Made by a program: the position numbers and the translations under genes. A stretch of 64,000 nucleotides of DNA from Centroscyllium fabricii (taxonomy: Eukaryota). Below are positions 4,471 through 62,000 of this stretch, piece after piece. Within the stretch, counting starts at the first letter, position 1. Each line of letters opens with the position of its first letter. A model generated the notes under the pieces. It searched no databases and had not been told where the DNA came from. It saw only the letters and a list, made by a program, of their open reading frames with translations. The stretch is from NCBI GenBank assembly GCA_051313645.2, contig JBNRSN020000003.1, positions 501,456,001 to 501,520,000 of the forward strand, written 5' to 3'.

Positions 4471-4943
4471 CTTGCTTACCCCTCCTCCCCCACCTTTTTA
4501 TTTTTAGATTGCTATCGTTACTTTAGGCTTTCAGCATTCGGTTACTAGATGTAGCTTCAACCCTTCCTTTAAGTTTTTTCTAATGTTTTCAATCTGTAGC
4601 TTTCAAATCCCTAAGTGTGTGTGTGCATTTTTCTGCTTTTAAATCTTTTAGCTTTTAACATCCTCTTTCGCGTTGTAATTTGTAGTTTTTGGGATCATAG
4701 GTTCTCGCATACCCAAAGGCATCAGTAGGCCTGACGTATCGTCAATAGTCTAATAAAACTAAAGACGCGTAGTTACCTTAACTAAAGGCTTTCATTAGCT
4801 TACAAAGGAGCTACGCTCCGATCGAACATCAGGTACAGAATGAATGGGGGCAGGTCAGTCCCCACCTATAAGGCACTCACCTGAGGGGAGGAGTTAGAGG
4901 TGTGGCTGACCTGACCCCGCGACAGTGTCGCAATACAAGGCAG

Positions 4944-8458: not shown

Positions 8459-9194
8459 GCAGTGTATTATGCACCCGGCCGCTATACATACAATACAATA
8501 TTGGCCACAATATTGAGGTGGTAAAAGAGTAAATATAACGGTTACCACAAGGCCATAACCCGGCAATGTGTTGATAGGGAAAATACTCCAGAGCAACTAG
8601 CATCCTTATTGGTGAGTTCAAAATCATGAATCTGTTAGTGGGGTGTACGGAACCTGGTCCACAGTATCTTGACATGATATTGAATTTACCTTGCAGCTGC
8701 TAAGTTAAAAAGAACATCATAGAGGAATTAAAGCTACAGCAGGTGATTTTAAGTTTAGACTCTACTCACTATTGTGGAAGCAAAATAAAGGCAGAAATAA
8801 TGAAGATAATGAGATAATTTACCCATGAGTGAATAACTGGATGTACAGGGCCAAGTGCAATGTTACACTAATCTATGAATGTCCATTAGTCAGGAAGGAA
8901 TAGGGCAACTTTAATGAGCACCTCCTGTATGCAAAATGGTAGCCAACAAAGGATAATTGCTTATGGTTCATTATTCTTGCGTGCAGTCTGGATAATTCAA
9001 GGAAAAAAAGAAAAGGATCAGGTGGCACAGAGGGGCTCAGAATGCAAACTGTGTTTTTCACCCCCTGAAGATTTAAACAGGAGTAAAAAATACCTGCTTG
9101 TCTTTTGATTGATTGGATTATTAGAAAACAAGGCGAAGAAACCACTGCGAGAGCAAATTAGGAGAAAGTCCTTTTTGCAGGAAGTTGTAGCGAA

Positions 9195-30770: not shown

Positions 30771-33219
30771 GGAGGTATGACTGCTGGTCTGCAAACACCC
30801 TTGCATGGTAAGGTCTCCTGTGAACTTTCCTCTCTGCCCGCCTCCATCTGCCAATGACAGCTGCTTGCTCTTGCCTTCTCTGTCATTGTCTCTGTTACAT
30901 GCCCACATACTGCAGCAGGGCAACATCACCATCCAGGGCAGCTCCCATACTTCCAAATGAGCCACAGCCCAGAAGGGGCAAAGTCGTTGTGTAAACTTTT
31001 AACTTTGACAAAAGCACTTGCCAGGCTAAGGTTTTCAGCATCACCAAAGGACTTGCTAAGTTAAACTTTTAACTGTAACAGAAGCAGCAGCTAAGGTAAA
31101 GGTTTACCTGTGATGTGACTGCTTTTGCACTCTCTCTCTCGCTCTCTCTATCTACTGCCTACCTCCAACAAAATGGCTCCCACACCAAAGGCAGGAAGTG
31201 TGCCCCCTTAAATAGCGCCCCAGCGGCCCCAGCTCACGTCAGCTGCGCTCCTGAAAGCGGGCGCGGGCAGCGCTGGGCATGGGGTAGGCGCGCGCTGCTC
31301 AATTTCTGGCGCAGTCCGCAGGGCGGGTGTCGCACCGGGAAGTCACGACGATATCGGCAAGGATTCAGGCGCGCCAAGTAGCGCGCGCTAACAGTTAGCG
31401 CCGCTTGATGAATTTGGGGCACGGTGGAAAATTTTTAGCGCCCGGCGCTAAAACCTCTCGTGCCGGTTTTCGGGTGCTAATCGGTCGGTGCTAGAGTGCC
31501 AGTTTTTCGGCTTATGACTCTCAATGAGCAACTTGACTTCCCCCAGCTCAGTCACAGCAACAGTCTTATGGCAAACAGTCTCACAATAAGGAGACTAAAC
31601 ATCGTAGCACAAAACAAAATCATTGTAACTGTGATGCAAAGTGCATGAGAATGGTTAATAGTGCTGGGGAACATTGCCATATTTCTTGTTGATTTTCTGT
31701 TTTGGAATTCAATTGGTCAAGAAATTGGATAAAAGTTTTCGTATAGGCCTTTTAAGGACTTGAAGATGGGATGTTAGTCTTTTGACATCTATTCATTAAA
31801 GGATTCAGGGAGCCACTTAAAAATGTCACCTCTGGTTCCTAAACATCCTACAATGTACCAAGGGGAAATCTTAAGTGTGTAAGAAATATGGCTGTGCAGT
31901 TATTCAGAAGGTAGCAGAGCATAAAAAGGCATTATATTCTTTAAGATAGATCTCCTCAAACTATACTGTCAAGAAGATTTACAATTGGCAAGGACATTTC
32001 CTCCCTATATTGAGATGAATTTGGTTCAGGTCAGCGGTATAAGATAGTTGACAAAAACAATCTGACAATTTGAGGATGTCTGATATGACATTGTAGCCAC
32101 CTTCTGAAAACCAGACTTATTTACATTCAGATAGCCAATTTACTGAAGTGTATTCCACAATCACAAGTTACTGTTGCCATTCACATAGATATTGAATGTG
32201 TAAAGTGAATGCTATTTTAATAACCCGAGAAATTAAACAACGCCGTACAAACTTTTTTTTCCTTCCGAAACTGCAAATCTTAAATCAGAAGAAATTGGTG
32301 ATTTTGAAGTTACTGGCTGAGAAGAGAAAAGTTAATTGAATGCAATGAGTTTAGAGGAAAATGCTTGGTTCACTTTTAACCACCTATTGACAGTAGAAGT
32401 TAATGCAGTCCTGTGTGTGATAGAGATTATGGTCTTGATCTTCCCTGAGGTGCGGGGAATTGGCGGGTTTCCGGCGGGTCAGGTTTCCCACACGAATCCT
32501 AAAGGGTCTGGGAGCCCCATGCAATTTTGGCTCAATTGGCCAATTGATTTCCAGCATGTGGGAACCCTTGGCAAGTGAGTATTTCCAATCAGAAAGTCGC
32601 ACAGTATGATGTCATCGTTGCTGGTGCATTTCAGGTCCACAGCAAGCCTTGCTTCTGCTGCCCACTGCCAACCTTTTGCCCTTTCATGCCAGAGGGACCT
32701 GGAGGCAGAATGACCATCGAGAGACCTAGGTCTGCTTCCAGGTTTGATGATGTGGCCCTGCAAGCTTCATTTGAGGGAGCGAGAGCTCATAAAGAGGTGC
32801 TCTTCCCTTCTTCAGGAAGGAAGGAGTATCCCCAGCAGGCTGTGTGGATCCAGGTGGCAGAGGAGGGTATCTCATTATCAATACCCTGCAGAACCTGGAT
32901 TCAGTGCAGGAAGAGAATTCATGACCTTCTTGTGGTAACCGTATATATACTGTAATTACCACCGTAATATTGTTGCCAATATTATCAGTATGTATAGCGG
33001 TTGGGTGCATGATGTGTTGCGACACTGTCGTGGGGCCAGGTCAGCCACACCTCTAACTCCTCCCTCAGGTGAGGCCCTTATAGGTGGGGACTGACCGGAC
33101 CCCGTTCATTCTGTACCTGTTGTTCGTTCGGAGTATAGCTCCGTTGTAAGTCAATAAAAGCCTCTAGTTAAGGTCACTACTCGTCTTTAGTTTTATTAAG
33201 ATTATTGACGATGCGTCAA

Positions 33220-33232
33220 TTTTATTGACTTA
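33220..33232 (+). promoter_or_regulatory. PBS-position sequence complementary to the element's own LTR poly(A)-signal segment (element C)
   Basis: TTTTATTGACTTA is the reverse complement of TAAGTCAATAAAA at 33147-33159. Confidence 0.8.
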
Positions 33233-33658
33233 AAAATTTGAAATGGAGAGCGGCGCTGTAAAACCAGAGAAGCTGGATATCAGTCCACAGGACCCAGCCG
33301 CCGCCACTACCTTCGAACACTGGTTCGGTCTCCTGGAGGCCTACATGGAAGCCGCAGGGGCTGAGACCGATGGGAACAAGCTACAGGTTCTCCGGTCCAG
33401 GATCTCCAGCCGAGTATTCTCCCTCATCCGGGACGCCAAAACTTACTCAGCGGCGGTGGAAAAACTGAGGAAATGCTATGAGCGCCCGGTCCACTCTGTC
33501 TACGCCAGACATGTGCTCGCGACCAGACCACAACTACCGAGTGAGTCTAACGAACAGTTCGAGCAGGCACTCCAAGCCCTGGTACGGGTCTGTGGCTGCC
33601 AACCACGGACGGCAGAGGAGGAGGCGAATCTCCTCGTCCGAGACGCCTATGAAACGGA

Positions 33659-34278
33659 TTCCGGTTCCGGTTCTGGCAGGACGGCCACTATTGGGCGGCT
33701 GCACCTCTACTCCTCTGCGTGGAGTCAATTCGTTCTGGTCGACCGCCATTTGACGTCGGCGGCGCCGGGTGAGAGCCGGTGGGATGCGGGGCACAGTTCA
33801 GCCCCCAGGACGCTGCATCAGTTCGGCCTCGGTCCAGAGTTCGGACTTCCGGGGAGTCGGGACGGCCTTGGCTTGGCGTTCCGGGGAGCCTGCGTCGAGC
33901 GCCTGGAGTTCGGAGCTCAGGGGAGCTGGGATGGGCACTCGGAGAGGGCTAGGCCTCAGGCCTCAGGACGCTGTGCCCGGAGTTCGGAGCTCCGTGGATT
34001 CGGGGAGTCGGACAGAGAGTGGCCACGGAAGGAACAGTGGCAGAGCGAGTTGACTGGGCGAGAGAGGACAATTTACCAACGGTTGAGTGGCCAGAGCAGG
34101 AACGGGATCCACGAGGATGGCGCCGGAGAATGGCTGACGTCTTGCGGGCTCGTTCGTGCCGGGCAGCTTAATTGTTGCGCGGTTGTTGCACGGTGTGTCG
34201 GGTAGCAGTAAGCTTTTCACTGTTTAAATTGTGTTTTAAATATGTGACAATAAAATTTAACTTGAACTTCAACTTGAA
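33659..34278 (+). mobile_element. Non-coding retroposon with a Rex1-like 3' tail, inserted in C gag
   Basis: Absent from the homologous site in D (~42505-42530); begins (TTCCGG)n; ends AAGCTTTTCACTG...GTGACAATAAAA plus (CTTGAA)n, like the tail at 2101-2127. Confidence 0.75.
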
Positions 34279-34808
34279 GGTGCGTAGAGGCCCGCCAGCG
34301 GCTGCTAGAAAAGGACTCCCAAACTCTAGAGGAGGCGATCTCTATCTCTAACTCTGTGGAAGGCGCACGCCGCAAGCTGCAGACGTACGGCGGCATAAAC
34401 CCACAGGTCTACGACGCGTGGGCAGCACCACAACGGGTCCAGGCCTGGGCAGCACCACAACGGGTCGAGACCCCCACGATGGCAGCGGCAGCTGCGAAGA
34501 TGCCGGCGGACAAGAAGTGCTACTTCTGCGGCCAGGGATTACACCCACGGGCGAGATGCCCAGCGAAGACCGCGACCTGCGAGAGGTGCTCTAAGAAGGG
34601 ACACTATGCAAAGGCCTGCAGATCAGCCCCGGCGCCCAGCTCCAGGTACAACAGCGCAGCCTGCGAAAGCTCCACCAGGTCTCAGGTAAGCTGCAATTGC
34701 AGCGCGATCCAGCGACGGTCCGGGGGTAGAGAAAAAGCGCCCCCATCTCCCACCCTGATGCGGCAAAGGCCGGCTGCACCCACGGCACGCCAAACTCAGC
34801 CACGGCCG

Positions 34809-35123
34809 GCCATGCGCGACCCCCCAACGCCGGCATCCCGCCCAGCGCGGCTCGCTGTGTGCGAATCACGGGCACCGCCAACCCAACCGCCGTGGCTCGC
34901 TGCGTGCGAATCACGGGCACCGCCAACCAAGCCACCGCGGACCGCTGCGTGCGAACTACGGGCGCCGCCACCGCGCCCACAGCGGTCAGCCGCGTGTGAA
35001 CCACGGGCGCCGCCATCTTGTCTCCAACGGCCCGCCATGTGCGACCCCCCGGCGCCGCCATCTTGTCTCCAGAGGCCAGCCATGTGCGAACCACGGGCGC
35101 CGCCATCTTGTGTTCGGCCCCAA
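34809..35123 (+). repeat. 45-bp (15-aa) coding tandem repeat in the C Gag-protease linker, about 7 units
   Basis: A(A/M)C(E/D)xRAPP repeats in ORF 34356-35600. Confidence 0.85.
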
Positions 35124-38100
35124 CCAGCGGGGGGCCCCCACACACACACACACACTTCGGCTTCAGCCATCCCAAAAGTCGATCAGGCTAGGCCGCACAC
35201 CCTATCTAATTCAATGATGGCGATCAAAGTTAACGGCCATAACACTAACTGCCTGTCCGACACCGGAAGCACAGAGAGCTTTATTCACCCTGATACAGCG
35301 CGGCGCTACGGACTGCAGATCCTGCCCACGAGCTACGAAGTCTCCCTTGCTTCACAGTCCCACACCGCGGACGTCACCGGATACTGCTCCGTCACGCTCA
35401 CAGTTAAGGGCTGCATGTACCGCAACTTTAAGTTGTACATCCTCAGACAACTGTGCGCCCCAGCCTTACTGGGACTGGATTTCCAGTGCCACCTTAAGAG
35501 CGTGACAATGGAGTTCGGCGGGACCCTGCCCCCCCTCACCATCAGTAGCCGGGACAGTCCCTTCCCAAGCGGAGCCCGGCCTGCGGCCTCTCCACCCTGA
35601 AAATCGACACCCCCTCACTGTTCGCCAATCTCGACCCCAACTGCAAGCCCATTGCTACCAAGGGTCGGCGGTACAGTGTGGGGGATCGGACATTTATCAG
35701 GTCGGAGGTCGGGCGTATGCTGAAGGAGGGGATAATTGAAGCCAGCACCAGCCCCTGGCGGGCCCAGGTTGTAGTGGTGAAGACTGGCGAGAAACAGCGG
35801 CTGGTTATCGATTACAGCCAGACTATTAACCGCTACACCGGGCTCGATGCCTACCCCCTCCCCCGCATCTCGGACATGGTTAACCAGATCGCCCAATACA
35901 AGGTGTTCTCCACAATCGACCTTAAGTCGGCGTATCACCAACTCCCGATCCGGAAAGCCGACCGCCCGTACACCGCCTTTGAGGCGAACGGTCGGCTCTA
36001 CCACTTCCTCCGGGTCCCCTTCGGCGTGACCAACGGAGTGTCGGTATTCCAGCGGGAGATGGACCGCATGGTTGACCAGAACGGGTTGCAGGCCACCTTC
36101 CCCTACCTGGACAACGTGACCATCTGCGGCCATGACCAGCAGGACCACGATGCCAATCTGGCCAAATTCCTTGACACGGCGAAACGGCTTGATCTAACGT
36201 ATAACAAGGACAAGTGTGTCTTTAATACAGATCGGCTCGCCATCCTCGGATACGTGGTGGAGAACGGGGTCCTCGGCCCCGACCCACAGCGTATGCGCCC
36301 ATTACAGGAACTGCCCCTTCCGCACAACCCAAAAGCCCTGAGGAGATGTCTAGGATTTTTCTCCTATTACGCACAATGGGTTCCCCAGTTCGCGGATAAG
36401 GCTAGACCGCTCCTCAAGGCTGCCGCCTTCCCCCTCTCGGTAGAAGCCGAAACGGCATTCGCCCGGATAAAGGAAGACATTATCAAGGCGACCATGCACG
36501 CCGTTGATGAATCCATCCCGTTCCAGGTGGAGAGTGACGCTTCGGACTTTGCCCTTGCCGCCACCCTAAATCAGGCAGGCAGGCCCGTAGCGTTTTTCTC
36601 CCGCACCCTTCAGGGACCCGAAACTCACCACTCCGCAGTGGAAAAGGAGGCCCAGGCCATCGTGGAAGCCGTGCGCTATTGGCGTCATTACCTGGCTGGT
36701 AAGCGTTTTACCCTGCTCACCGACCAACGGTCGGTCGCGTTTATGTTTAATAATAAACAAAAGGGTAAAATCAAGAATGATAAGATCCTGCGGTGGCGGA
36801 TCAAGCTCTCGACTTACGAGTATGACATTCTTTACCGACCAGGCAAACTCAATGAACCCCCGGACGCACTGTCCAGGGGAAAGTGCGGCAGTGCCCAGCT
36901 AGACCGGCTGAAGGAACTCCACGACCGCCTCTGCCACCCGGGTGTCACCAGACTTGCCCACTTCGTTAGATCCCGTAGCCTCCCCTACTCCATCACGGAG
37001 ATCAAGGCTATGACCCGAGAGTGCCCTGTTTGCGCCGAGTGCAAACCTCAATTTTTCAGGCCAGACATGGCGCATCTCATTAAGGCCACCCGCCCCTTTG
37101 AATGTCTAAGCGTGGACTTCAAAGGCCCCCTCCTCACCACCAACCGCAACTCGTACTTCCTCACGGTCGTAGACGAGTTCTCCCGCTTCCCCTTTGCCTT
37201 CCCCTGCCCAGATATGACGAGCGCAATGGTGATCAAACACTTCACCACGCTGTTCGCCATTTTCGGTCTCCCCAGCTACATTCATAGCGACCAGGGGTCA
37301 TCGTTCATGAGCGATGAACTGCGCCAGTTTCTGCTCCAGAAAGGGGTTGCCTCGAGCAGAATGACCAGTTACAACCCCCGGGGGAACAGCCAGGTAGAAA
37401 GGGAAAATGGGATCATCTGGAAGGCGGTCACCCTGGCTCTGAAGTCCAGAGGCCTTCCAGTGTCCCATTGGCAGGCAGTTCTCCCAGACGCGCTGCACTC
37501 GATATGCTCTCTGCTGTGTACGGCCACCAACGCCACCCCTCATGATTTAATGTTTTCCTTCCCCAGGAAGTCGACTTCGGGGACTGCTCTTCCACCGTGG
37601 CTCATGACGCCGGGGCCGGTCTTCCTTAGGAAACACGTCCGCGGCCACAAGACCGACCCCCTGGTGGACAAGGTGCAGCTCCTGCACGCCAACCTGCAGT
37701 ACGCCTACGTGCAGTTCCCGGACGGGCGCGAGGACACCGTCTCCATCAGGGACCTAGCGCCCACCGGGAGCACCGTAGCAGAACCCCTGGCCGGGCAGCA
37801 GCCCGCCCAGCCACTATATTTCGGCCACCCACAGCACCTACATTGGCCGCCATCACCAGGTTATCCAGAGCCCCCGCTGTGGCCAGCTGAGGACCAAGAT
37901 TCGGATGGCTCAGACCAACCACCACCACCATCACCTAAAGTTTCGGCACCAGCGCCGCCGTCACCACCACCGGACCCAACGCCGCCGATGCTGCAGGGAA
38001 CGGATCACGCAGAACTTCTGCCAGAGCCCCGGCGGTCCTCCAGATAGACGCAACCGCCGGATAAACTGATAGTGAACTGCTCTGTCCATTCACACCGCCG

Positions 38101-38672
38101 GACTAAATTTTCAAAGAAGGGGTGAATGTGGTAACCGTATATATACTGTAATTACCACCGTAATATTGTTGCCAATATTATCAGTATGTATGGCGGTCGG
38201 GTGCATGATGTGTTGCGACACTGTCGTGGGGCCAGGTCAGCCACACCTCTAACTCCTCCCTCAGGTGAGGCCCTTATAGGTGGGGACTGACCGGGCCCCG
38301 TTCATTCTGTACCTGTTGTTCGTTCGGAGTATAGCTCCATTGTAAGTCAATAAAAGCCTCTATTTAAGGTCACTACTCTGACGTATCGTCAATTCTCTCA
38401 ATAAAGACTTAGACGAGTAGTTACCTTAACTACGGGCTTTTATTAACTAACTTTGGAGCTATACTCCGAACGAACATCCAGAACAGAATGAGGGAGCCCG
38501 GCCAGTCCTCACCTATAAAGGGCCTCACCTGGGGGAGGAGTTAGAGGTGTGGCTGACCTGGCTCCACACCAGTGTTGCAAACATGATAACAGAACAGCCA
38601 ATATTGGCGACAATATTGCAGTGGTAAAACTATGTATAATAACGGTTATCACATTCACCCCTTCTTGAAAAT

Positions 38673-41600
38673 TTAAGTCCAGCGGGGTGAATGTACAGAG
38701 CAGTTCATTATAAGTTTGTCCGGCAGTCGCGTCTGTCTGGAGGACCGCCGGGGCTCTGGCAGAAGTTCATTATGTTCCGTCCTGCTCGGGTCCGGTGGCG
38801 CTGGTGCCGAAACTTCGGACGCTGGTGGCCTCGGTTGATCTGAGCCATCGGAATGGTGGTCGTGGGCCGGCCACGGCTGGGGCTCTGGATACCTCGGAGG
38901 CCACTGTAGATGCAGGGGGTGTTCAAAATACCGTGGCTGGGCGGACTGCTGCCCGACCAGTGGCTCTGCTGTGGTGCACCCGGCGGGCGCTAGGTCCCAG
39001 ATGGAGACGGTGTCCTCGCGCCCATCCGGGAACTGTACGTAGGCGTATTGGGGATTTGCATGCAGGAGCTGCACCTTGTCCACCAGGGGGTCGGTCTTGT
39101 GGCCACGGACGTGCTTTCTAAGGAAGACCGGCCCCGGTGTCGTGAGCCATGGAGGAAGAGCTGTCCCCGAAGTCGACTTCCTGGGAAAGGAAAACATCAA
39201 GTCATGAGGGGTGGCGTTAGTGGCCGTACATAAAAGAGAGCGTATCGAATGCAGCGCGTCTGGGAGGACTGCCTGCCAATGGGCCACTGGAAGGCCTCTG
39301 GACTTCAGAGCCAGGATGACCGCCTTCCAGATGATCCCATTCTCCCTTTCTACCTGGCCGTTCCCCCGGGGGTTATAAGTGGTCGTTCTGCTCGAGGCAA
39401 CCCGTTTCTGGAGCAGAAACTGACGCAGTTCGTCGCTCATGAACGACGACCCCCGGTCGCTATGGATGTAGCTGGGGAGACCGAAAATGGTGAACAGCGT
39501 GGTGAGGTGTTTTATCACCGTTGCGCTCGTCATATCTGGGCAGGGGAAGGCGAAGGGGAAGCGGGAGAACTCATCTACGACCGTGAGGAAGTATGAGTTG
39601 TGGTCGGTGGTGGGGAGGGGGCCTTTGAAGTCCACGCTTAGACGTTCAAAGGGGCGGGTGGCCTTAATGAGGTGCGCCGTGTCTGGCCGGAAAAATTGGG
39701 GTTTGCACTCGGCGCAGACAGGGCACTCTCGGGTCATAGCCTTGATCTCCGTGATGGAGTAGGGGAGGCTATGGGATCTAACGAAGTGGGCGAGTCTGGT
39801 GACACCCGGGTGACAGAGGCGATCGTGGAGATCCTTCAGCCGGTCTAGCTGGGCACTGGCGCACGTTCCCCTGGACAGTGCGTCCGGGGGTTCATTGAGT
39901 TTACTTGGTCGGTAAAGAATGTCATACTCGTAAGTCGAGAGCTCGATCTGCCACCGCAGGATCTTATCATTCTTGATCTTACCCTTCTGTTTATTATTAA
40001 ACATAAACGCCACCGACCATTGGTCAGTGAGAAGGGTAAAACGCTTACCGGCCAGGTAATGACGCCAGTAGCGCACGGCCTCCACGATGGCCTGGGCCTC
40101 CTTTTCCACTGCAGAGTGGCGAATTTCGGGTCCCTGTAAGGTGCGGGAGAAAAACGCTACGGGCCTGCCTGCCTGATTCAGGGTGGCGGCAAGGGCAAAG
40201 TCCGAAGCGTCACTCTCCACCTGGAAAGGAATGGATTCATCAACGGCGTGCATGGTCGCCTTGATAATATCTTCCTTTATCCGGGCGAATGCCGTTTGGG
40301 CTTCTACCGAGAGGGGGAAGACGGCAGCCTTGAGGAGTGGTCTAGCCTTGTCCGCGAACTGTGGGACCCATTGTGCGTAATAGGAGAAAAATCCTAGGCA
40401 TCTCCTCAAGGCTTTGGGGTTGTGAGGTAGGGGCAGTTCTTGTAGGGGGCGCATACGCTGTGGGTCGGGGCCGAGGACCCCATTCTCCACCACATATTCG
40501 AGGATGGCGAGCCGGTCTGTATTAAAGACACATTTGTCCTTGTTATACGTAAGGTCCAGCTTTTCCGCCGTGTCAAGGAATTTGGCCAGATTGGCATCGT
40601 GGTCCTGCTGGTCATGGCCGCAGATGGTCACGTTGTCCAGGTAAGGGAAGGTGGCCCGCAACCCTTCTGGTCAACCATGCGGTCCATCTCCCGCTGGAAT
40701 ACCGACACTCCATTGGTCACGCCGAAGGGGACCCGGAGGAAGTGGTAGAGCCGACCGTTCGCCTCGAAGGCGGTGTACGGGCAGTCGGCTTTCCGGATCG
40801 GGAGTTGGTGATACGCCGACTTAAGGTCGATCGTGGAGAACACCTTATATTGGGCGATCTGGTGGACCATGTCCGAGATGTGGGGGAGTGGGTAGGCGTC
40901 GAGCCTGGTGTAGCGGTTAATAGTCTGGCTGTAGTCAATAACCAGCCGCTGTTTCTCGCCAGTCTTCACCACTACTACCTGGGCCTGCCAGGGGCTGGTG
41001 CTGGCTTCAATTATCCCCTCCTTCAGCATACGCCCGACCTCCGACCTGATAAACGTGCGATCCCCCACACTGTACTGCCGACTCTTAGTAGCAATAGGCT
41101 TGCAGTTGGGGTCGAGGTTGGCGAACAGTGAAGGGGGGTCGATTTTCAGGGTGGAGAGGCCGCAGGCCGGGCTCCGCTTTGGGAAGGGACTGTCCCGGCT
41201 ACTGACGGTGAGGGGGGGCAAGGTCCCGCCGAACTCCATTGTCACGCTCTTGAGGTGGCACTGGAAATCCAGACCTAGTAAGGCTGGGGCACACAACTGC
41301 TTGAGGGTGTACAACTTAAAGTTACGGTACACACAACCCTTGACTGTGAGCGTGACGGAGCAGTAGCCGGTGACGTCCGCGGTGTGGGACTGTGAAGCAA
41401 GGGAGACTTGGTAGCGCGTGGGCAGGATCTGCAGTCCGTAGCGCTGCGCTGTATCAGGGTGGATAAAGCTCTCTGTGCTTCCAGTGTCGAACAGGCAATT
41501 AGTAACATGGCCGTTAATTTTGATCGGCATGATCGAGTTCGATAGGTTGTGTGGCCTAGCCTGGTCAACTTTAGGTATGGCTGAGGCCGAAGTGTGCCTT

Positions 41601-42931
41601 TGTGTGTGGGGGCCCCTTGCTGGTTGGGGCTGTACACAAGATGGCGGCGCCCGTGGCTCGCACATGGCGGGGCGCTGGAGACAAGATGGCAGCGCCGAGG
41701 GGTCGCACATGGCGGGCCGCTGGAGACAAGGTGGAGGCGCCGAGGGGTCGCAAATGGTGGGCCGCTGGAGACAAGATGGCGGCGCCCGTGGTTCGCACGC
41801 GGCTGACCGCTGTGAGCACGCTGGTGGTGCCCGTGGTTCGCACGCAGCGGGCCGCGGTGGCTGGGTTGGCGGTGCCCGTGGTTCGCACGCAGTGAGCCGC
41901 GGTGGTTGGGTTGGCGGTGCCCGTGATTCGCACGCAGCGGGCCGCGCTGGGTGTGCTGCTGGCATTGGGGGGTCGCGCATGGCCGGCCGTGGCTGAGCTT
42001 GGCGTGCCGTGGGTGCAGCCGGCCTTTGCCGCATCAGGGTGGGAGATGGGGGCGCTTTCCTTCTACCCCCGGACCGTCGCTGGATCGCGCTGCTATTGCA
42101 GCTTACCTGAGGCCTGGCGGAGCTTTCACAGGCTGCGCTGTTGTACCTGGAGTTGGGCGCTGCTGGTGCTGATCTGCAGGCCTTCGCGTAGTGTCCCTTT
42201 TTGGAGCATCTCTCACAGGTCGCGGTCCTCGCTGGGCATCTCGCTCGTGGATGCAGTCCCTGACTGCAGAAGTAACACCGTTTGTCTGCCTTTGTGGCCA
42301 TCGCAGCCATCGTGGGGGTCTCGACCCGTTGTGGTGCTGCCCAGGCCTGGGCCCGTTGTGGCGTGGCCTACGCGTCATAGACCTGCGGGTTTGTGCCGCT
42401 GTACGCCTGCAGCTTGTTGCGTGCCCCTTCTACAGAGTTTGATATAGAGATCGCCTCCTCTAAGGTCAAAGAGTCTTTCTCAAGCAGCCGCTGGCGGGCT
42501 TCAACGCACCTCAGGCCTGTTACGTAGGCATCACGGACGAGGAGATTCGCCTCTTCCTCTGCTGTCCGTGCTTGGCAGCCACAGACCCGTACCAGGGCTT
42601 GGAGTGCTTGTTCAAATTGTTCATTTGTCTCACCCGGTAGTTGCGGTCTGGTCGCGAGCACATGTCTGGCGTAGACCGAGTGGACCGGGCGCTCGTAGCA
42701 TTTCCGCAGTTTCTCCACTGCCGCTGGGTATGTTTTGGCGTCTCGGATGAGGGAGAATACTCGGCTGGAGATCCTAGACTGGAGAACTTGCAGTTTGTTC
42801 CCGTCGGTTGTAGCCTTGGCGGCGTCCATATAGTCCTCCAGGAGACCGAACCAGTGTTCGAACGTAGTGGCGGCGGCTGGGTCCTGTGGACTGGTGTCCA
42901 GCTTCTCTGGCTTTACCGCACCGCTCTCCAT
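38673..42931 (-). pseudogene. gag-pol of element D
   Basis: ORFs 42368-42931 (TGG>TAG stop relative to C), 40628-42310 and 38673-40661 (frameshift near 40660); YLDN motif. Confidence 0.92.
41625..41985 (-). repeat. 45-bp coding tandem repeat in the D Gag-protease linker, about 8 units
   Basis: ACEPRAPP-type repeats in ORF 40628-42310. Confidence 0.85.
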
Positions 42932-42943
42932 TTCAAATTTTTC

Positions 42944-42956
42944 TTAGTTAATAAAA
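42944..42956 (-). promoter_or_regulatory. Self-complementary PBS-position sequence (element D)
   Basis: Sense TTTTATTAACTAA pairs with LTR sense TTAGTTAATAAAA (43017-43029). Confidence 0.8.
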
Positions 42957-45577
42957 TTGACGTATCGTCAATTCTCTCAATAAAGACTTAGACGAGTAGT
43001 TACCTTAACTACGGGCTTTTATTAACTAACTTTGGAGCTATACTCCGAACGAACATCCAGAACAGAATGAGGGAGCCCGGAGAGTCCTCACCTATAAAGG
43101 GCCTCACCTGGGGGAGGAGTTAGAGGTGTGGCTGACCTGGCTCCACGACAGTGTTGCAAACATGATAACAGAACAGCCAATATTGGCGACAATATTGCAG
43201 TGGTAAAACTATGTATAATAACGGTTACCACATACTCGTCTTTAGTTTAATTAAGATTATTGACGATACGTCACTTCTGCACACTGGAAAAGTGAGTATG
43301 AATTTCCCATCACCCTCAATCTGATCCCCATTGCCTTTCCTCACCAGCACTCAGCTTCAGCAATCTCTCCCTCCACATCCCACTTCACACTCACATCCAT
43401 GCACCCTTACCCATCCCCTCTCTCTCTATGCTCACATTCACATAACTATTACACCATGCAGCCCTCACACTCCCTATCACTCTGATGCTTTGAACACAAC
43501 TGACAACACACAGGGAGGGCCCTTGGTCTTGTCACCTCATTCCATCTTTGGCTCCTTCTAAGTATCGATGCTATGGAATCTCTACACTCACTCCTTCATT
43601 CTCACTCAACCTCCACTTGTCTCCCTCATTGCAGGAAAAGAGCGCTCACAATAAGTGAGAAAGAGTGAGGACAGGAGGAGGGCCACCCCCAGTAGCCCAC
43701 CTCGCCCTTTGGGAGGAGGCGGTCCTGGAGATTGCAGGAGTGGAGGAAGAAGCGCAAGTGGGGGAACGGACAGACGGGTGCATCGCAGCAAGCTGGTGAC
43801 AGATTAGTTCTTCATCTCTCTCATTGACATTGCATGAGTCGCTGATAATGATTCTGAAGTTCTAACAGATGGACTTATGATCATCTGCAATATGCAAGAT
43901 GCATGTAACCTTTGCATCACATCTCTGACTCTTCCCTTTACTCCCCCACAGGATCATCACAAGCAGCCATCCCCACTAGACAGGAGGACCAGCCTGAGCA
44001 TCCAGACTCCTCAGAGGAAGCTGCAACCTCTGAGGGTGCAGCATCAGCAGAATTCAGCGCACCCAGCACCAGCGCAGACACTCACACCTCGGGGGGACCT
44101 TCGGGACATAGAATAGTGTTGTCACCTGGTGTATCATCGCTCACAAGTGAGCATCAGCAGATGGTGGAGACATTGGCAGCAGTGAAGAGTCCTAGCTGGA
44201 GGGCCCAGGACTCTGCCAGCTCATCTCAGCTGCATGTCGACCCTCTGCCTCTGGGTCCATCCATAAGATCGGCAGTGCTGGAACTCCAGGAACAGATGCA
44301 GGAGTGGGTGGGTGAGCAGCAGCCTGGCGCTCCTGTTGCTGCTGCTGTTGTTCCTGGTTCTGCTGGTGCCGCGACTGGTGCGGGGGCTCATCTAATGCTC
44401 AGAAAGGAAGGAAATAAATGGCTTCCATGCTTCTGACATATGCCTCCGCTGAGGAAGCGCTGAGTGAATGTGCCAAGAGGGGTTTCTCAGGAGTTCACAC
44501 TGGAGATGTGTGTGAGGCTCCAACCTACCACAGGTGTGCTTAAGACTTCTAAAAGTTGCCCCAATCCTGAAACAAAAAGGTCCTGCCACCTGCATATGAT
44601 GGCTGATTCAATCTCATAATTTATGACTGACTTGCAGCTAAGAGTCAGCAAGCCGAATGTGTCCCCACCAGGTTTCACAGACGGTGTTTCCAGCTGCCGG
44701 GTTTTGTGTGGGAAAAGGCTGAAAATTGCAAGGGCCCCCTAAAATGGCATTATAGATGCCAATCAATGGTGATTAAGGTGCCTAAACACCATTCCCACCG
44801 GTCGTGGGCGGGACTGCAGCGGGCCGACCAGACACGGCAGGGGGAAAATCGCGATGTGTGGGGAATCCAGTGGGAGGAGTCTCGACCCTCCGTTTCTGCT
44901 ATTTTGTCTCCCCGGCCGCCGAAAAGCCCGCCTGATGGCTCAAGGAAAATTAAGGCCTATGTGTAACTGTTAAAATGCATTGTTGGAGTTCACATGATAA
45001 AATTCAGCATGCTCAGTGGAAATCAATGCAAAAAGACAAACTTTTCTTTGGGGGCCTTGACAGAAATCAAAAGAAACTGACCAGAACTCCAGTAAGGTAA
45101 TATCAGTCACTGGAAGCTTAAAGCACTGAAGGTTTAAGGGGCACAATTACTCCCACCCCACCCTCCACCATTCCAATAGCAATAATTAGATTGTTTCCAC
45201 AATGTTCAATCCCTCATTTCAAATCATCTGCTGTCTAGTTTGATATATATAAGAATGATATCAGAGAGGGTCCAGACCCTCGTCGACATGACCTAGCAAG
45301 TGAGGAAGTAAGATTGAAGAAACTGAAGAGAGCCTTCCAATCAGCAATCAGACAATGAAAATATTTAGGTAAATGAGATGGTTTCAACTATCTTTAGAGG
45401 AATCTGAACTAAATTATATATAAAAAGCTACAAAACCTTCCGAGCCTGTTGCAGCAGGCACTCACTCAAGTTGGCAGTCAAATACCAGTGTTGTCCATGC
45501 TACTTGTGTGCCCCAAAGCATTTTGGGTTTGCCACATTATGTTGTCTCACTTCATTATTCTTGACTGGATGCAACAA

Positions 45578-49400: not shown

Positions 49401-51919
49401 AAGCACAGGACCACGATACTATGTGGACCACACTATCCATAGCTGGGGTCCAATTAAAAATGGAACTGGACACAGGGTCAGCCCTGACGGTAATCAACGA
49501 AAAGTCTTTCGCGCATGTGGCACTGCAAGAGACTAAAGTAATACTGAAAACCTATATGGAACAGAAAGTCTACCCAAAAGGAAGAATCAGAGTGACCATT
49601 ATATATAACGGTAAGAAGACCACAGGACTGTATTTGTACGTCTTACAGGAAGGTGGACCACCATTGCTCGGGCGTGAGTGGATTAGGAAACTCCAGTTTA
49701 ACTGGGCATCCATTCACGCACTAAAAGTTAAAGAAACACGTGACACAAGAATGGCACCGGACCGGTTGACCAGGATACTGGAAAGCACCCCTGAAGTCTT
49801 CCAACTGGGGCTGGGGAAATTGAACGACATCAAAGCGACCATCACAATCGCTGAAGGGGCCACACCAAAATGTTTTATCCGACCAGCAGTAGAAGCAGAG
49901 CTGGATAGCCTGGAACAACTGGGCGTGTTGACAAAAGTGGACTGGAGCGAATGGGCCACGCCCATTGTCCCAGTTATGAAGAAAGCCACTCACAGCACCC
50001 CAGGGGAGCCAAGGAAGGTTCGCATCTGTGGTGACTTCAAGGTCACAATTAACCCAGTGCTACAAACAGCACAGTATCTGCTGCCCAGGATAGACATCTT
50101 TGCCTCGTTAGCGGGCGGTAAAAAATTCTCAAAGATAGATCTCGCGCAGGCGTACCTGCAAATGGAGGTCGAGGAGGAGTCAAGGAGTCTCCTCACAATC
50201 AACACACACAGAGGCCTTTACAGGTACAACCGCCTGGTCTTTGGTGTGGTGTGCGCCCCGGCAATTTGGCAACGAACCATGGAGCAGGTCCTGCAGGGAA
50301 TCCCGGGGACACAGTGTTACCTGGATGACATCTTAGTCATGGGCAACAATGACACGGAACATCTCTCAACATGGGCAACAATGACACGGAACATCTCTCA
50401 AAATTGGAACAAGTGCTTCTCCGATTGCGAAAATATGGCCTCAGGGCCAATAATGATAAATGTGAGTTCTTCAGGGACCAGATAGCGTACTGTGGTCATA
50501 TCATTGACCAGGAGGGACTCCACAAATCCCCAGAGAAGATTGACACAGTTATGAACGCCCCGGCACCAGAAAATGTGTCTCAGCTACAGTCTTTCCTAGG
50601 ATTGATAAACTATTAGCACAAGTTCCTTCCGAACTTGTCCACCATTTTACACCCCATGAACACATTGCTAAAAACAGGGGTCACATGGGAATGGAACAAA
50701 GGGTGCAGGAAAGCCTTCCTGGAGAGCAAACGGTTGCTCACATCCAAGAAAGTGCTGGCACATTTCGACCCATCGGTGCCTATCAAACTGGCATGTGATG
50801 CGTCGCCATACGGAATAGGGATGGTGTTGTCACACCAGTTCTCAGGGGGGCAGACGGCCTATTGCATTCGCTTCGAGGTCATTAACCTCCGCCGAAAAGA
50901 ATTACGCCCAAATAGACAGAGAAGCCCTCAGTCTGGTATGGGGAGTTAAAAAATTCAACCACTACCTACACGGCCAGAGGTTCACATTAATTACGGACCA
51001 CCAACCACTAGTGTCCATTTTCAACCCTAAGAAGGGTGTCCCCCTGATGACTGCTCAGCGCCTGCAGAGATGGTCCTTGTTCCTGGGAGCTCACCAGTAT
51101 CAGATACAGTACAAGGGCACAAAACAGCATGCCAATGCTGACAGTCTCTCACGGCTGCCACTACCAACTGTGGGCAAAGACCCTACGATAGACCCGGTGG
51201 AGCTATATCATGCCTCCATCGTAAAAACACTGCCGGTGACAAACAAAAATATTGAGAAGGAAACCAGGAATGATCCTACATTGTCCAGAGCCTACGACAT
51301 GACGGTAAAGGGAAGGCCAGCCCAGGGCGATTCTCAATTGCCACACTACTCTGCAAGAAGGGAACAGTTGTCCACCTGCAGAGGCACCCTGATGTGTGGA
51401 TCCCGAGTGGTGATTCCAGTGAAACTGCAGAAACAGGTGCTAAAAGAACTCCACGAGGGACACATGGGGTGCGTCAAAATGAAAAGCCTGGCCAGGGCCT
51501 ATGTATGGTGGCCAGGCATCAATAACCAAATAGAGGAATTGACTAAGGACTGCCAAGGATGCCAATTAGTACAGAAGGCACCACCCCAGGCTCCACTACA
51601 TCCGTGGGAATGGCCCTCCACACCTTGGCAAAGGATTCATGTGGACTTCACGGGTCCATTCATGGATGCGATGTTCCTGGTCGTGGTGGATGTGGTAATA
51701 CAGAACAGCTTCTAGCTTGGAGTTTTTGCTTACATCACTTCTGGGGACCTGTGAACTTTGGATGATGTCACTTCCTGTAATTAGCCCAGTATAAATACTG
51801 GGCTACTCAGTATGATTTAGTAAGAGGCATGGTGCAGACCTCTTTTGTGTGTATCACAGTTATAAGTTGATTAAAGCTTACCTTAGGTTTATATCGTGTA
51901 AGTTTCATTCTTACAACAA

Positions 51920-51931
51920 TTTAATCAACTT
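51920..51931 (+). promoter_or_regulatory. Self-complementary PBS-position sequence (element F)
   Basis: TTTAATCAACTT is the reverse complement of AAGTTGATTAAA at 51864-51875 (ATTAAA hexamer). Confidence 0.8.
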
Positions 51932-53394
51932 TGCAAAACTTCTCACTCAACTCGAACGTTTGGACAAAACTCGGAGCTGAGGATCCAGGGAACCGCCCAG
52001 CATGGAGAACCTCCTTAGACCGACTCGTCTCGATTTGGACCCAAACACCTCAGCAGCTGATAAAGTATGGAAACACTGGTATCACTCTTTCGAAAATGTT
52101 CTTGTGTATTGTGAAGCTGATGATGACATGAAGCTCAAGTTACTTATCAACTATGTCACCCCAAGGGTATATGAATGTGTGGATCATTGGACTAATTTTG
52201 ATGAGGCAATCCGGACACTTCAGAGACTATATACTAAGACACCTAATGAGGTCTATGCTAGACATCTACTAGCTACAGCCCGACAAGGGCCAGAGGAATC
52301 AATTGATAAATTCCTTCATGAGCTTCGCAGGCTTAGCATGAATTGTAACTTTCAGGCGGCCTCAACTGAACTGTACCATGAAGAGCTGATTCGTGATGCC
52401 TTCATCTATGGGCTTGCCTCCCCATTTATTCGCCAGCGTTTACTCGAAAGTAAGACACTGGAACTACAAAAAGCTTATGACATGGCTTGTTCTCTGGATT
52501 TGGCAAAAAAAAATGCAGACCTTTATGAGGTACCCAGACCTCGAACTGCTGCTTTAACCACAACCAGACAACTTAAGCGGCCACAGGTGCACTCTATTAG
52601 GGAGGACTTTATTCCTGATGATCAATCTGATGACTTCAGTGATGAAGAAGATGCTGACCCCACTCTGGCAGCCTCTTGGCGATCTAAGAAATGCTTCTTT
52701 TGTGGTGATGAGTTTCATCCTAGGAAATTCTGCCCTGCTCGCAATGCGATTTGCAGTCATTGTGACAAAAAGGGTCATTTTGCGAAGGTTTGCCTATCAC
52801 GAGCCTCTACGAGGGCTTATCGAGCTCAGTCCTATCGAACTGCCCCAATTAGGGCCTATCAAGATATTCCGGCTAAGACTTATCATGCTTCCTCTCGAGG
52901 TTTTTCCCGAAGAAGCACACCTAGAGTTTCAGCCACTCTTTGTGCAACAACATCAATTACAGCTGCTTGTCCTCCAAATCTATTCCATGCAGCTGTGAAG
53001 GCATCAGTTGCTGGACATACTTTAGATGCCTTAATTGACTCAGGCAGCTCTGATAGTTTTATTAGGGAACAGGTTGTTACAAAGTTAAAGTTACATGTTT
53101 TCCCATCCAACCAGGCAATTGCGATGGCTCAGTCGTCGCTCAACACCAGAATCTCCGGCTTTTGTATTGTTGAAATGTCACTTAATGGCCACAGGTATCC
53201 CTCCACCCGGCTTTCGGTGCTCAAGGACCGGTGTAGTGATCTTATCTTAGGGCTGGACTTTCAAAAGCAGCATAAGCAGCTCACTATTGAGTTCGGTGGA
53301 TCCAAACCCGGACTCACTATTTCTAATATCCTGCCTCAATTACCGTTCTGTGCGTTGTCAGCGGCTTCACTGGATGAACCCTCACTATTTACCA

Positions 53395-53521
53395 TAATGC
53401 GGAGGTGCCGGTGTTGGACTGGGGTGGACAAATGCAAAAAGTCACACAACACCAGGTTTAAAGTCCAACGTTTTATTTTAAATCACAAGCTTTCGGAGCT
53501 TTTGCCCCTTCGTCAGGTGAA
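53395..53521 (-). mobile_element. Penelope-like pLTR fragment inserted in F pol
   Basis: 11-bp TSD ACTATTTACCA (53384-53394 / 53522-53532); homologous to 30680-30770. Confidence 0.85.
53483..53521 (-). ncRNA. Minimal type-I hammerhead ribozyme motif (Penelope type)
   Basis: UCAC-CUGACGA-A-GGGGC-AAAA-GCUCC-GAAA-GC-UU-GUGA: stem I, catalytic boxes, stem II, palindromic AGCU stem III and an NUH site. Confidence 0.75.
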
Positions 53522-56500
53522 ACTATTTACCAGTATTCCTCCTCGATGCAAACCAATTATAACGAAATCACGACGTTTCAGTCAGGAAGACCAGTCCTTT
53601 ATTGCGACTGAAATTTCTCGGCTTTTGGCAGAGGGTATCATCGAGCCTTGTTCATCGCCATGGCGGGCCCAAGTTGTTATTGTTAAGAACCCTCTACAGC
53701 CTCACAAGAAACGGCTGTGCATTGACTATTCACAGACCATCAATCAATATACGGACTTGGACGCCTACCCATTGCCGTGCATAGATGATATGGTTAATAG
53801 ATTGGCTGAGTACAGTGTTCTCAACGTATGATCTGAAAAGCGCCTATCATCAAGTACCTTTGAAAGTCTCAGACAAGCAGTATACGGCCTTTGAGGCCAA
53901 TGGACGGCTGTACCAGTTTCGTCGCCTCCCGTTTGGGGTCACTAATGGAGTGGCTGTCTTCCAGCAGGCAATGGATGACTTAGTCAAGCAGGAAAACTTA
54001 AAGGATACTTTTCCTTATCTAGACAATATTACTGTTGTAGGTCGTGATCAACAGGAACACGACGCCAATCTCCAACGATTTCGGGATGCACTCCAGCACC
54101 GTAATCTAACATTGAATGCGTCTAAATCCATTGAGTCGCAACCAACCATCAACATCCTTGGCTATTGTGTGGGCAATGGCATAATTAAACCGGACCCTGA
54201 AAGGCTTCGCCCGCTCCAAGAGCTCCCGCCGCCTAAGAATCCAGCCTCCTTGCGTCGGGCCCTCGGCCTCTTTGCGTATTATGCTAAATGGATTCCTAAC
54301 TTCTCGGACAGAATCCAACCTCTACTGAAGGCCAGAACATTTCCATTAGACACAGCGGCTGTTACAGCCTTTACTCTTCTAAAACAACAGTTGGAGAAAG
54401 CGGCCCTTCACTCTATTGATGAGAATCTGCCCTTCGTCGTCGAATGTGATGCCTCAGAAGTGGCGATCTCGGCTACTCTGAATCAGGAAGGTCGTCCGGT
54501 GGCATTTTTGTCCAGGACCTTTCAAGGTGCCGAACTACATTATCCTCCAGTGGAGAAAGAAGCTACAGCCATTATAGAGGCAGTACGGAAATGGAACCAT
54601 TTCCTAGCTCGGCAACACTTTACATTGATAACAGACCAGCGATCGGTCGCTTTTATGCTTGATAATCGGAAACGAACCAAAATTAAAAATAATAAGATCC
54701 AGCTTTGGCGGATGGAGTTGGCCTCTTTCGGTTACACCATCCACTACCGACCTGGCAAGGACAATGTGGCCCCGGATACCCTCACATGAGCATTCTGCTC
54801 CACCATGTCACCCTCTACTCTCGTGGACATCCATGATGGATTGTGTCATCCTGGCGTTACCCGCATGTTACACTTCGTGCGATCACGGAATCTCCCTTTT
54901 TCTACCGGGGATGTCAAGAAGATGTGCTCGGACTGCAGAGTCTGTGCAGAATTAAAGCCTCAGTTTTTCCGCCCCTCGGGTGGTACGCTCATACATGCGA
55001 CCCAGCCAATGCAACGGCTTAGCATTGATTTTAAGGGCCCGTTGCCCTCTTCAACTCGAAACACTTATCTACTGACCATGGTCGACGAATATTCCCGTTT
55101 TCCGTTTGCCTTTCCCTGCCCCAATATGCTGTCGTCCACGGTTATCAGCTGCCTTGAACAGGTATTTTCTTTCTGTGGCATGGCGTCTTACGTTCACTCG
55201 AATCGGGGTCCTTCCTTCATGTCAGGAGAACTCAAGGCCTATCTCTCGGATCGGGGCGTTGCTACCAGCAAAACGACACCTTATCATCCTGTCGGGAATG
55301 GGCAAATCGAACGGTATAATGGCATCATTTGGAATTCTGTACGTCTAGCTTTGAAATCTCGGGGCCTGCCCATCCAGCAATGGGAAGCAGTACTCCCAGA
55401 TGCATTGCATTCTACACGGTCCCTTCTTTCGACCGCCACGAATATGACTCCCCATGAACGATTCTTTCAATTCCAGCGTTGCTCATCCTGCGGGATCTCT
55501 CTTCCATCGTGGCTGACTACACCAGGACCGGTGTTACTCCGGAGACATGTCCGGGCGTCTAAGAATGACCCCCTTGTAGACGAGGTGGAACTGACTGATA
55601 TCAACCCGACCTATGCATATATCCGATATCCTGACGGTCGGGAATCCACTGTGTCGTTACGAGATCTGGCTCCCTGCCCGCCGAAACTTACTGGGACACC
55701 TGGGGATGGTGTTTTGCCAGGCGCATCTCTGTGCTCGCCAGGTACCCCTCACCAGGATCTGGATCTGACGCCGGCTGGTACTTCACTCCAGGATACAAAC
55801 CTGAGGCAGACCGACGATGAGCCCGTTGGGGCTCGCACACGCAGCCACGATCCACCCCATTCTACACGCCCGGGAACGAATCTGCCACAGACCTACTCAA
55901 CACCCGTTCGGGCTCAAACGCAAAGCCATGATCTCCCAGACCCTTCACAGGGCGGGCCAGACCACACGGACTCTGATCAATGGCCCACGGCATGTAAATG
56001 GGCTAGAGACCCTCTATCACCACGGGAACCCAAACGGGTGCGACTCTCCCTCATTCGACAGATGCGTAATGAAGGGGGGATTCCGGCCTCCTACTCTTTT
56101 GGGAGGGAGGCGGCCTCCTAATCTTTTGGGAGGGAAGAATGTGGTAATACAGAACAGCTTCTAGCTTGGAGTTTTTGCTTACATCACTTCTGGGGACCTA
56201 TGAACTTTGTATGATGTCACTTCCTGTAATTAGCCCAGTATAAATACTGGGCTACTCAGTATGATTTAGTAAGAGGCATGGTGAAGACCTCTTTTGTATG
56301 TATCACAGTTATAATTTGATTAAAGCTTACCTTAAGTTTATATCGTGTAAGTTTCATTCTTACAACAGTGGACGCACACTCCAAATGGTCAGAGGTCATC
56401 AAGATGTTGTCCACCACCTTGGAGAAAACTGTTGCGGTACTGAGGACCATCTTTGCCCACAATGGGGTACCAGAGCAGCTATGTTCCGATAACGGACCTC

Positions 56501-61009: not shown

Positions 61010-62000
61010 TGTGGTAAACCGTTATTATTGTTTACCACCAATCTGTACTGTATATAGTTATCCTCTGTATTGTACATAGTTCACTGTATTGTACATGGTC
61101 ACCTCTTGTCTAGTTATCCTCTGATTTGTACATAGTTCACTGCATAGTACATGGTCACCTCTTGTCTAGTTATCCTCTGTATTGTACATAGTTCACTCTT
61201 GTCTAGTTATCCTCTGTATTGTACATAGTTCACTGTATTGTACATGGTCACCTCTTGTCTAGTTATCCTCTGTATTGTACATAGTTCACTGTATTGTACA
61301 TGGTCACCTCTTGTCTAGTTATCCTCTGTATTGTACATAGTTCACTCTTGTCTAGTTATCCTCTGTATTGTACATAGTTCACTGTATTGTACATGGTCAT
61401 CTCTTGTCTAGTTATCCTCTGTATTGTACATAGTTCACTGTATTGTACATGGTCACCTCTTGTCTAGTTATCCTCTGTATTGTACATAGTTCACTCTTGT
61501 CTAGTTATCCTCTGTATTGTACATAGTTCACTGTATTGTACATGGTCATCTCTTGTCTAGTTACCCTCTGTATTGTACATAGTTCACTGTATTGTACATG
61601 GTCACCTCTTGTCTAGTTATCCTCTGTATTGTACATAGTTCACTCTTGTCTAGTTATCCTCTGTATTGTACATAGTTCACTGTATTGTACATGGTCATCT
61701 CTTGTCTAGTTACCCTCTGTATTGTACATAGTTCACTGTATTGTACATGGTCATCTCTTGTCTAGTTATCCTCTGTATTGTACATAGTTCACTGCATAGT
61801 ACATGGTCACCTCTTGTCTACCTGGGATGCCTCAGCCGGCCCCTCCTCCTGGCTCCACCCACATACTCGGGTATAAAGGTGGCAGCCATGTTGACCGCAT
61901 GGCATTTCCAGGACCAAGTACTCCAGTTCTTGCCAATAAAAGCCTCAGTTACCTTTCTCCAAGACTCACAGTAATTGATTGTGCATCAATTTTATTGGCA
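61010..62000 (+). mobile_element. Orphan LTR of the YLDN lineage with expanded U3 and a self-complementary PBS-position sequence
   Basis: TGTGGTAA...CATCA (61010-61988); TATAAA at ~61873; TGCCAATAAAA (61931-61941) is complementary to TTTTATTGGCA (61990-62000). Confidence 0.8.
61057..61820 (+). repeat. Minisatellite of 56-bp and 37-bp units with a 149-bp higher-order period
   Basis: Unit starts at 61057, 61113, 61169, 61206, 61262, 61318, 61355, 61411, 61467, 61504, 61560, 61616, 61653, 61709 and 61765. Confidence 0.95.

Follow-up and report, generated by a model that had tools for sequence, protein, structure and literature searches.

Self-priming is best described for Tf1/Tf2, Tj1 and the Tf1/sushi chromoviruses. 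These have no tRNA primer binding site (PBS); a stretch adjoining the 5' LTR is complementary to the R region of the same element, and cleavage is required to yield a 3' end (PMC7175516, PMC10085805, PMC4600332, PMC5341516, as far as the accessible portions go). In Tf1 the primer consists of the transcript's initial 11 bases, cut by RNase H (PMC7175516). Within the accessible portions of the literature covered, experimental proof is confined to the fission-yeast Tf1-type chromoviruses. The available part of one paper lists self-priming for Tf1/sushi, Tcn1 (Gypsy) and, as a prediction, TAR/Houba/Osr-1 (Copia) (PMC6317226). Tcn1 and TAR/Houba/Osr-1 resemble the elements described here in that self-priming was predicted from LTR/PBS complementarity, and the trait thus occurs in more than one lineage; they are plant and fungal lineages, for which that part of PMC6317226 gives neither a poly(A) link nor a primer position.

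The window analysed here is a stretch of 64,000 nucleotides from the genome of Centroscyllium fabricii. The original prediction was that three Gypsy elements (C, D and F) and an orphan LTR carry, one nucleotide after the terminal CA of the LTR, a complement of their own LTR segment ending in the poly(A) hexamer, in place of a tRNA-type PBS starting with TGG. All eight strings making up the four complements are present, at the positions collected in Table 1. The LTR ends of C, D and F were set by comparison of the 5' and 3' LTRs and by the 5-bp target duplications. In the family of the orphan, 11 of 11 other copies run on into a gag start of the same clade.

Table 1. Positions in the window of the self-complementary Gypsy elements and their features.
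Feature	Position	Strand	Basis or remark
Element C, Gypsy	32931-43273	+	window self-comparison; D sits within its 3' LTR
5' LTR of C (TG...CA)	32931..33218	+	98% repeat of 38127-38378 plus 43233-43273; TSD CTTCT
TATA-like box of C	33079..33084	+	7/9 own-genome families have it 71-75 nt upstream of the primer core (11 nt)
Predicted transcription start of C, initiator A, TATA+29	33108..33108	+	motif spacing; 4/14 over-extended copies end 52-53 nt from cut
Small hairpin upstream of primer, candidate pause site limiting re-copying	33130..33142	+	predicted in five C-type families; putative role
Pairing segment of C, putative 3' end of self-primer, includes AATAAA	33147..33159	+	predicted cut after 33159
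RCCW...WGGY hairpin	33160..33174	+	starts at first base past predicted cut; motif in 17/34; first pair G·U, A-U or G-C
1-nt spacer after the CA of the LTR in C	33219..33219	+	Watson-Crick in 0/34 families; same register as chromoviruses of this genome
PBS of C	33220..33232	+	complement of 33147-33159
gag-pol of C, PR-RT-RNase H-IN, YLDN	33243..38047	+	interrupted in this copy; without chromodomain
Polypurine tract of C	38112..38126	+	AA at end, then TG
Element D, nested in 3' LTR of C	38379..43232	-	partner 43017-43029, PBS 42944-42956; TSD TACTC
Element F, nested in Mag-like element	51691..56367	+	partner 51864-51875 (ATTAAA), PBS 51920-51931, TATA 51790; TSD GTGGA
Orphan 5' LTR (61010-61988) with internal tandem array	61010..62000	+	partner 61931-61941, PBS 61990-62000
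Solo LTR, C/D group, without PBS	4732-4943 plus 8463-8549	-	interrupted by tRNA-primed CsRn1-like insertion

The sample was enlarged with 200 kb of flanking genome, 80 metagenome loci (55 of which were tested for LTR pairs) and eight contigs from metagenome-assembled genomes (MAGs). A perfect run of at least 10 is present in 43 of the 53 gag starts that had upstream sequence and were scored. Of the ten misses, L062, L079 and L099 are contigs lacking a clear duplex, L074, L084, L089 and L093 are single copies that carry mutations, and L101, L105 and L107 are copies with one G·U. Taking one copy per family reduces the 53 rows to 34 families, nine from this genome and 25 environmental, with L101 and L066 placed in register by hand. 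Read in a fixed register across these families, pairs 1-11 are Watson-Crick at 367 of 374 positions, with one G·U and six mismatches, and yet the core 11-mers are of 30 distinct kinds. The inner end of the helix is sharp. At the other end pairing runs past 11 bp and drops off gradually: pairs 12-17 are formed in 31, 28, 25, 19, 18 and 13 of the 34 families, and pair 18 in seven. None of the 34 families has TGG within 8 nt. Both the predicted lack of a tRNA-type site and the predicted LTR-PBS covariation therefore hold in the larger set.

Several controls were run. When the post-LTR sequence was shuffled, the longest run over 1020 trials was 9. When partners were swapped between families, 8 of 1122 combinations reached at least 11, every one of them between families with near-identical partners. 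Pairs 4-11 are matched in 269 of 272 cases against 0.535 under family swap, and pairs 12-17 in 134 of 204 against 0.40; these are pair counts and not probabilities, since related families are not independent. Runs are 2-4 in six tRNA-primed CsRn1-like elements from the same region, all with TGG, and 3-7 in three 3'-LTR flanks.

Judged by sequence, the duplex spans a non-chromoviral Gypsy clade in which the RT motif is mostly YLDN. The nearest named proteins come from sharks and rays (73-83% identity), and there are homologs in cnidarians, in Ciona intestinalis (P0143, which falls inside the clade on RT) and in a nematode; the full-length homologs are single ORFs of about 1200 aa. The usual Ty3/Gypsy traits are present, namely LTRs, target site duplication, polypurine tract and the order PR-RT-RH-IN, and the best solved relative is Ty3. 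At the second Asp of the YxDD motif, the 120 homologs of window positions 35549-38047 (P0001-P0120) have Asn in 92 cases and Asp in 19, with nine not parsed. Mutants of the last catalytic RT Asp in Ty1 and Ty3 reportedly still polymerise. The acidic residues of RNase H, which we take to be catalytic, are invariant in 42 sequences. As predicted, a chromodomain is absent: there is no Chromo match in C, F or three full-length homologs, and none is listed for the other homologs.

A tree on 201 RT columns, with few outgroups and no more than three rows for the chromoviruses, unites 31 members in a single clade (100/99) that excludes those rows of this genome that are CsRn1-like, chromoviral or Mag-like. 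Constraining the clade and the chromoviruses to be sisters loses 7.35 log units, which is not enough to reject that grouping (p-AU 0.31). The suggestion of a lineage separate from Tf1 is thus borne out to the extent that the clade is its own and is not nested in the chromoviruses; an independent origin does not follow, as a sister grouping is still compatible with the data. Two existing names were considered. The clade shares with Mag what we take to be a likeness, a two-knuckle CCHC gag and short LTRs, but identity with the Mag C-clade was dropped because its RT is only about 30% identical to that of the Mag-like element E of the window. Mosquito Mag elements have sites for tRNA-Leu, -Ser or -Arg, according to the accessible part of PMC3286476. 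The anatomy presumably fits Cigr-1: a short LTR, a single ORF of about 1200 codons, a SURL-like gag and an RT outside Mag. The clade could be Cigr-1, or else MolGy or PolGy. The Cigr-1 clade of Ty3/Gypsy is named in PMC6238403 and PMC8556966, the accessible parts of which say nothing on its PBS. A motif search for the clade in the covered part of the supplements of two papers gave no match, viral contigs held no relative, and the ESM Atlas returned generic names only. The animal-type retrotransposon is also encoded by eight contigs in bacterial MAGs (L155-L162, with labels such as Ekhidna and Rubritalea), most probably because of contamination by host DNA. Repbase may hold notes on self-priming palindromes in some Gypsy families. 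Full-text searches of the literature turned up no report of an internal, hexamer-ended primer in this clade. Nor is self-priming reported for it in the accessible portions of the literature, including PMC6934838, PMC3601003, PMC5006619, PMC3587641, PMC5443660 and PMC2774666.

The duplex is real and clade-wide, and very probably works like that of Tf1, yet by the tests run the clade is no member of Tf1/sushi. It has in common with Tf1/sushi the lack of a tRNA PBS, pairing of its own R next to the 5' LTR, an 11-bp core and the 1-nt spacer after CA. It differs in having no chromodomain and an RT only about 31% identical, in a duplex of 11-19 bp as against a fixed 11, in the predicted position of the pairing segment some 40 nt inside R and not at its 5' end (in the own-genome families), in the poly(A) hexamer with which the duplex of 22 of 34 families closes, and in an RCC...GGY hairpin adjoining the predicted cut. 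A flanking duplex of the pretzel type was looked for in a weak test, in which the clade has a mean run of 6.8 against 7.0 shuffled, and the controls 8-9 against 6.7-6.9.

The position of the pairing segment was compared with six chromodomain loci of the same genome. In three of these (L314, L315, L317) the duplex is exactly 11 bp long and keeps the +2 register of the clade, and AATAAA lies 341-388 nt downstream. Of the others, L316 closely duplicates L315, L319 on inspection by eye gives 11 bp that include one G·U, and L318 lacks an LTR pair. In the two chromoviruses with a scored TATA box the duplex starts 29 nt past the box. In seven of the nine own-genome families of the clade, by comparison, an initiator-like motif lies about 29-31 nt past the TATA-like box, and the primer core lies well beyond it (Table 1). 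The orphan copy has its TATA at -59 and is 15 nt shorter than most in its family; across the 25 environmental families no consistent TATA box was found. The same yardstick thus points to the Tf1 geometry for the chromoviruses and to an internal position for this clade. The earlier placing of the partner inside R is supported to this extent, by the TATA spacing and by overshoot ends 52-53 nt from the cut, in the own-genome families only. As a separate observation, the sushi-like chromoviruses L314, L315, L317 and L319 share a conserved TGGGTC/GACCCA-type duplex from U5 to the leader.

From sequences that differ while pairing is kept, the original prediction suggested that an RNA duplex is under selection. 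The pairing stands, but selection is not the better explanation. An RNA helix maintained by selection tolerates G·U. Of the 368 core positions that pair, one is G·U, whereas the neighbouring stems predicted within the same loops, some of which are spurious, have 50 among 367 pairs; pairs 1-15 of the primer helix have one G·U against 88 G-C. Because G·U is nearly absent relative to these stems, the covariation is better read as a PBS copied from the primer. The C group has three abundant PBS variants, each with a matching LTR variant (2,478 and 4,910 exact junctions). Pairing is perfect in 27 of 30 copies of one of two junction sets; in the other it is perfect in 18 of 30 by script and in eight more on reading, the anchor being shifted by an indel, while four have one mismatch. 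Double changes also separate near-identical copies, as in L085 against L086-L088 and in L140 and L142 against nine sister copies. Compensating LTR changes are missing from all 21 rare PBS singletons, so single-step templating was not caught directly; these singletons look like mutations after insertion.

If the PBS is copied from a primer, longer complements are expected in some copies, because plus-strand strong-stop DNA would copy the primer together with RNA upstream of the helix. There are 360 genomic copies with a complement extending past the normal 13-nt site, while the reversed control gives 0. One subfamily has 91 copies that extend at least 52 nt; by hand count, 35 of the 49 of its copies listed do so. 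Fourteen copies were read, hand-picked from 100 listed of the 360 so as to span subfamilies, with their ends unseen when chosen. The complements measure 28-29, 32, 34, 41, 45, 47, 52, 52, 53, 53 and 65 nt, and three are at least 106 nt. The start at TATA+29, which lies 52 nt from the cut, was predicted before these copies were read, and four of the 14 end within 1 nt of it. Six stop short of it, and four pass it into U3. For assumed ranges of 30 to 85 nt the clustering has a binomial p of 0.01 to 0.0003; counting L322 and L326, which have the same junction, as one event gives three of 13 and p of 0.05 to 0.003. Tails are visible in 11 copies. Nine pick up again in sense in the internal sequence of the element, 184 to 3517 nt past the LTR, several of them at short stretches of imperfect homology; of the other two, one continues in U5 and the second is antisense. 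The sense-tailed copies would fit a failed second (plus-strand) strand transfer. A stop at the cap would also be expected if the plus-strand end annealed to uncut co-packaged RNA. Contigs of four runs aligned to C show no strand-changing joint among the rows listed, a result that carries no weight as evidence. In the flanking genome, at 501578946-501579330, there is a piece consisting of one LTR and a 78-nt inverted copy that runs past the start into U3, with a CA end and a flanking 5-bp duplication, and this is probably an integrated strong-stop product.

Priming by the element's own RNA, in some form, is in our view very probable. The prediction of tRNA-independent self-priming is supported by a PBS that matches its own LTR and by the lack of TGG. 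The 15 tRNA loci scanned were Lys and Cys genes only; 30 different sites that each track their own LTR argue against a tRNA-fragment primer. As to the form, we propose, with a probability of roughly 0.7, that the primer is a 5' piece of the RNA some 52 nt long, severed after ...UAAA and copied afresh into the PBS in every cycle. Transcription would begin at the initiator 29 nt past the TATA box, as the motifs and the copies stopping there suggest. Bases from about +40 to +52 would pair with the site 1 nt past the 5' LTR, in keeping with the covariation. The RNA would then be cut at the 3' end of the helix, after ...UAAA and before the RCC hairpin, probably by the RNase H of the element, on analogy with Tf1; we infer, as the original prediction did, that the cut falls after the hexamer. 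A self-cleaving ribozyme would leave a 3' end needing repair. A splice-made primer (AG at -11/-10) was rejected, as pairing and overshoot copies run through unspliced sequence. The 5' fragment of about 52 nt would prime copying of U5 and the rest of R, followed by a jump to the 3' R. Plus-strand strong-stop DNA would then re-copy the primer and the LTR would rewrite the PBS every cycle, which the over-extended copies support. The copy kept would normally be 11-19 nt; in a few percent of cycles it would overshoot, and its end would mis-land inside the element.

The strongest competitor keeps self-priming but has the primer given by the 3' copy of R, on a circularised RNA or a second packaged genome, cut after its hexamer. 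It would account for the four of 14 copies, and one in the flanking region, that extend into U3, and in particular for L328/L335, in which the complement runs on across the polypurine tract and reaches the integrase end. L328/L335 fits a 3' R donor, but inverted copies could also have produced it by recombining at the 13-bp match. L323/L334 ends exactly at the first base of the LTR, which fits a DNA fold-back as predicted for plus strong-stop DNA without any RNA primer. A 3' R donor also offers no reason to stop at the transcription start. Donation from the 3' R is less favoured than the 5'-fragment route, and we regard it as unlikely.

A plain Tf1 geometry, with the pairing segment itself as the transcription start and roughly the initial 11 bases as the primer, is more doubtful still. 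It would agree with a shortest intact duplex of 11 bp, with the A at position -11 in 24 of 34 families and the G at -10 in 30 of 34, and with the LTRs of L066 and L095, which are under 100 nt. The TATA box of seven of the nine own-genome families is too far upstream for it, at 71-75 nt; the matching of pairs 12-17 above the family-swap level speaks against it, and overshoots of 28-53 nt require RNA upstream of the pairing segment. It may nevertheless apply to some environmental families.

The poly(A) signal raises a further question. The poly(A) signal of HIV-1 is masked by a hairpin, and the duplex might here be mainly such a masking hairpin, with a host RNA as primer. The claim that the partner ends at the poly(A) hexamer is correct for all nine own-genome families, but over the whole set for only 22 of 34; in 21 of these 22 the hexamer is the sole A[AT]TAAA nearby. 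On folding in the 5' context these bases are buried, with an unpaired probability of at most 0.13 in 28 of 34 families, and in the 3' context the same bases are freed to a variable extent. The folding z of the leader is -3.35 for C, -2.18 for D, -1.65 for F and -1.42 for the orphan. These observations agree with masking. As the main role of the duplex, with a host RNA priming, masking is nevertheless highly improbable: 12 of the 34 families keep the helix without a canonical hexamer, G·U is nearly absent, there is no other PBS, the 30 site sequences follow their own LTRs, and the +2 register is shared with the chromoviral self-primers. That chance, or an assembly artefact, produced the duplex can be dismissed, for although the motif is A/T-rich this reading is already refuted by the shuffle maximum, the family swap, the short runs of the tRNA-primed elements and the more than 7,000 exact genomic junctions.

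Under the 5'-fragment reading the hexamer would in most families be the 3' end of the primer, and would thus lie hidden within the 5' leader. That the helix has masking as a genuine second function is plausible, though less likely than not. The overlap may be geometric: for the first jump 15-25 nt of R would have to remain past the cut, which is also the distance of the hexamer from the poly(A) site. In five C-type families the hairpin upstream of the primer is found about 4 nt away from where pairing stops, and it is clear in C-type families only. The hairpin past the cut, searched as a generic stem, is present in 20 of 34 families against 0.41 shuffled, which is weakly significant (p 0.025), and opens with G·U in eight of the 20, the search having allowed G·U. 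The exact motif of this hairpin alone is notable.

Taken jointly, these proposals would describe a second, independently evolved form of self-priming in an animal-wide Gypsy clade, with a capped 5' primer of about 52 nt, a cut that abuts a stacked hairpin and coincides with the 3' border of the hexamer, a helix that turns off the 5' poly(A) signal, a PBS rewritten each cycle, and fossils of failed cycles that map the start and the primer. The combination is put forward tentatively, and is somewhat unlikely to be right in every part. If true, it would provide a fossil read-out of start and primer without RNA data, usable for any self-primed family; the over-extended copies give exact predictions, namely a start at TATA+29, a cut at +52 and a PBS rewritten from the 5' LTR. 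A second self-priming geometry in a very abundant clade would bear on how often tRNA priming was lost: one group alone accounts for the exact junctions counted above in this genome, and relatives occur in sharks and rays, cnidarians, a tunicate and a nematode. Self-primed elements should also escape silencing by 3' tRNA fragments, and tools requiring a tRNA PBS will miss or misclassify elements of the clade.

It is worth adding some features of the surrounding sequence. An LTR element at 501401069-501410382 has LTRs that are 100% identical and an RT about 25% identical to that of C, with no TGG past its apparent end. Nesting is common in the window: D is inverted in the 3' LTR of C, a CsRn1-like element (4944-8458) lies in the C-type solo LTR, and F lies in the integrase region of the Mag-like element. 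The U3 of the orphan LTR (61010-61855) is a tandem array of about 850 nt in which 37- and 19-nt units alternate. A 45-nt in-frame tandem repeat, with a varying copy number, is found in the interval between nucleocapsid and protease of both C and D (41629-41988, 34932-35111).
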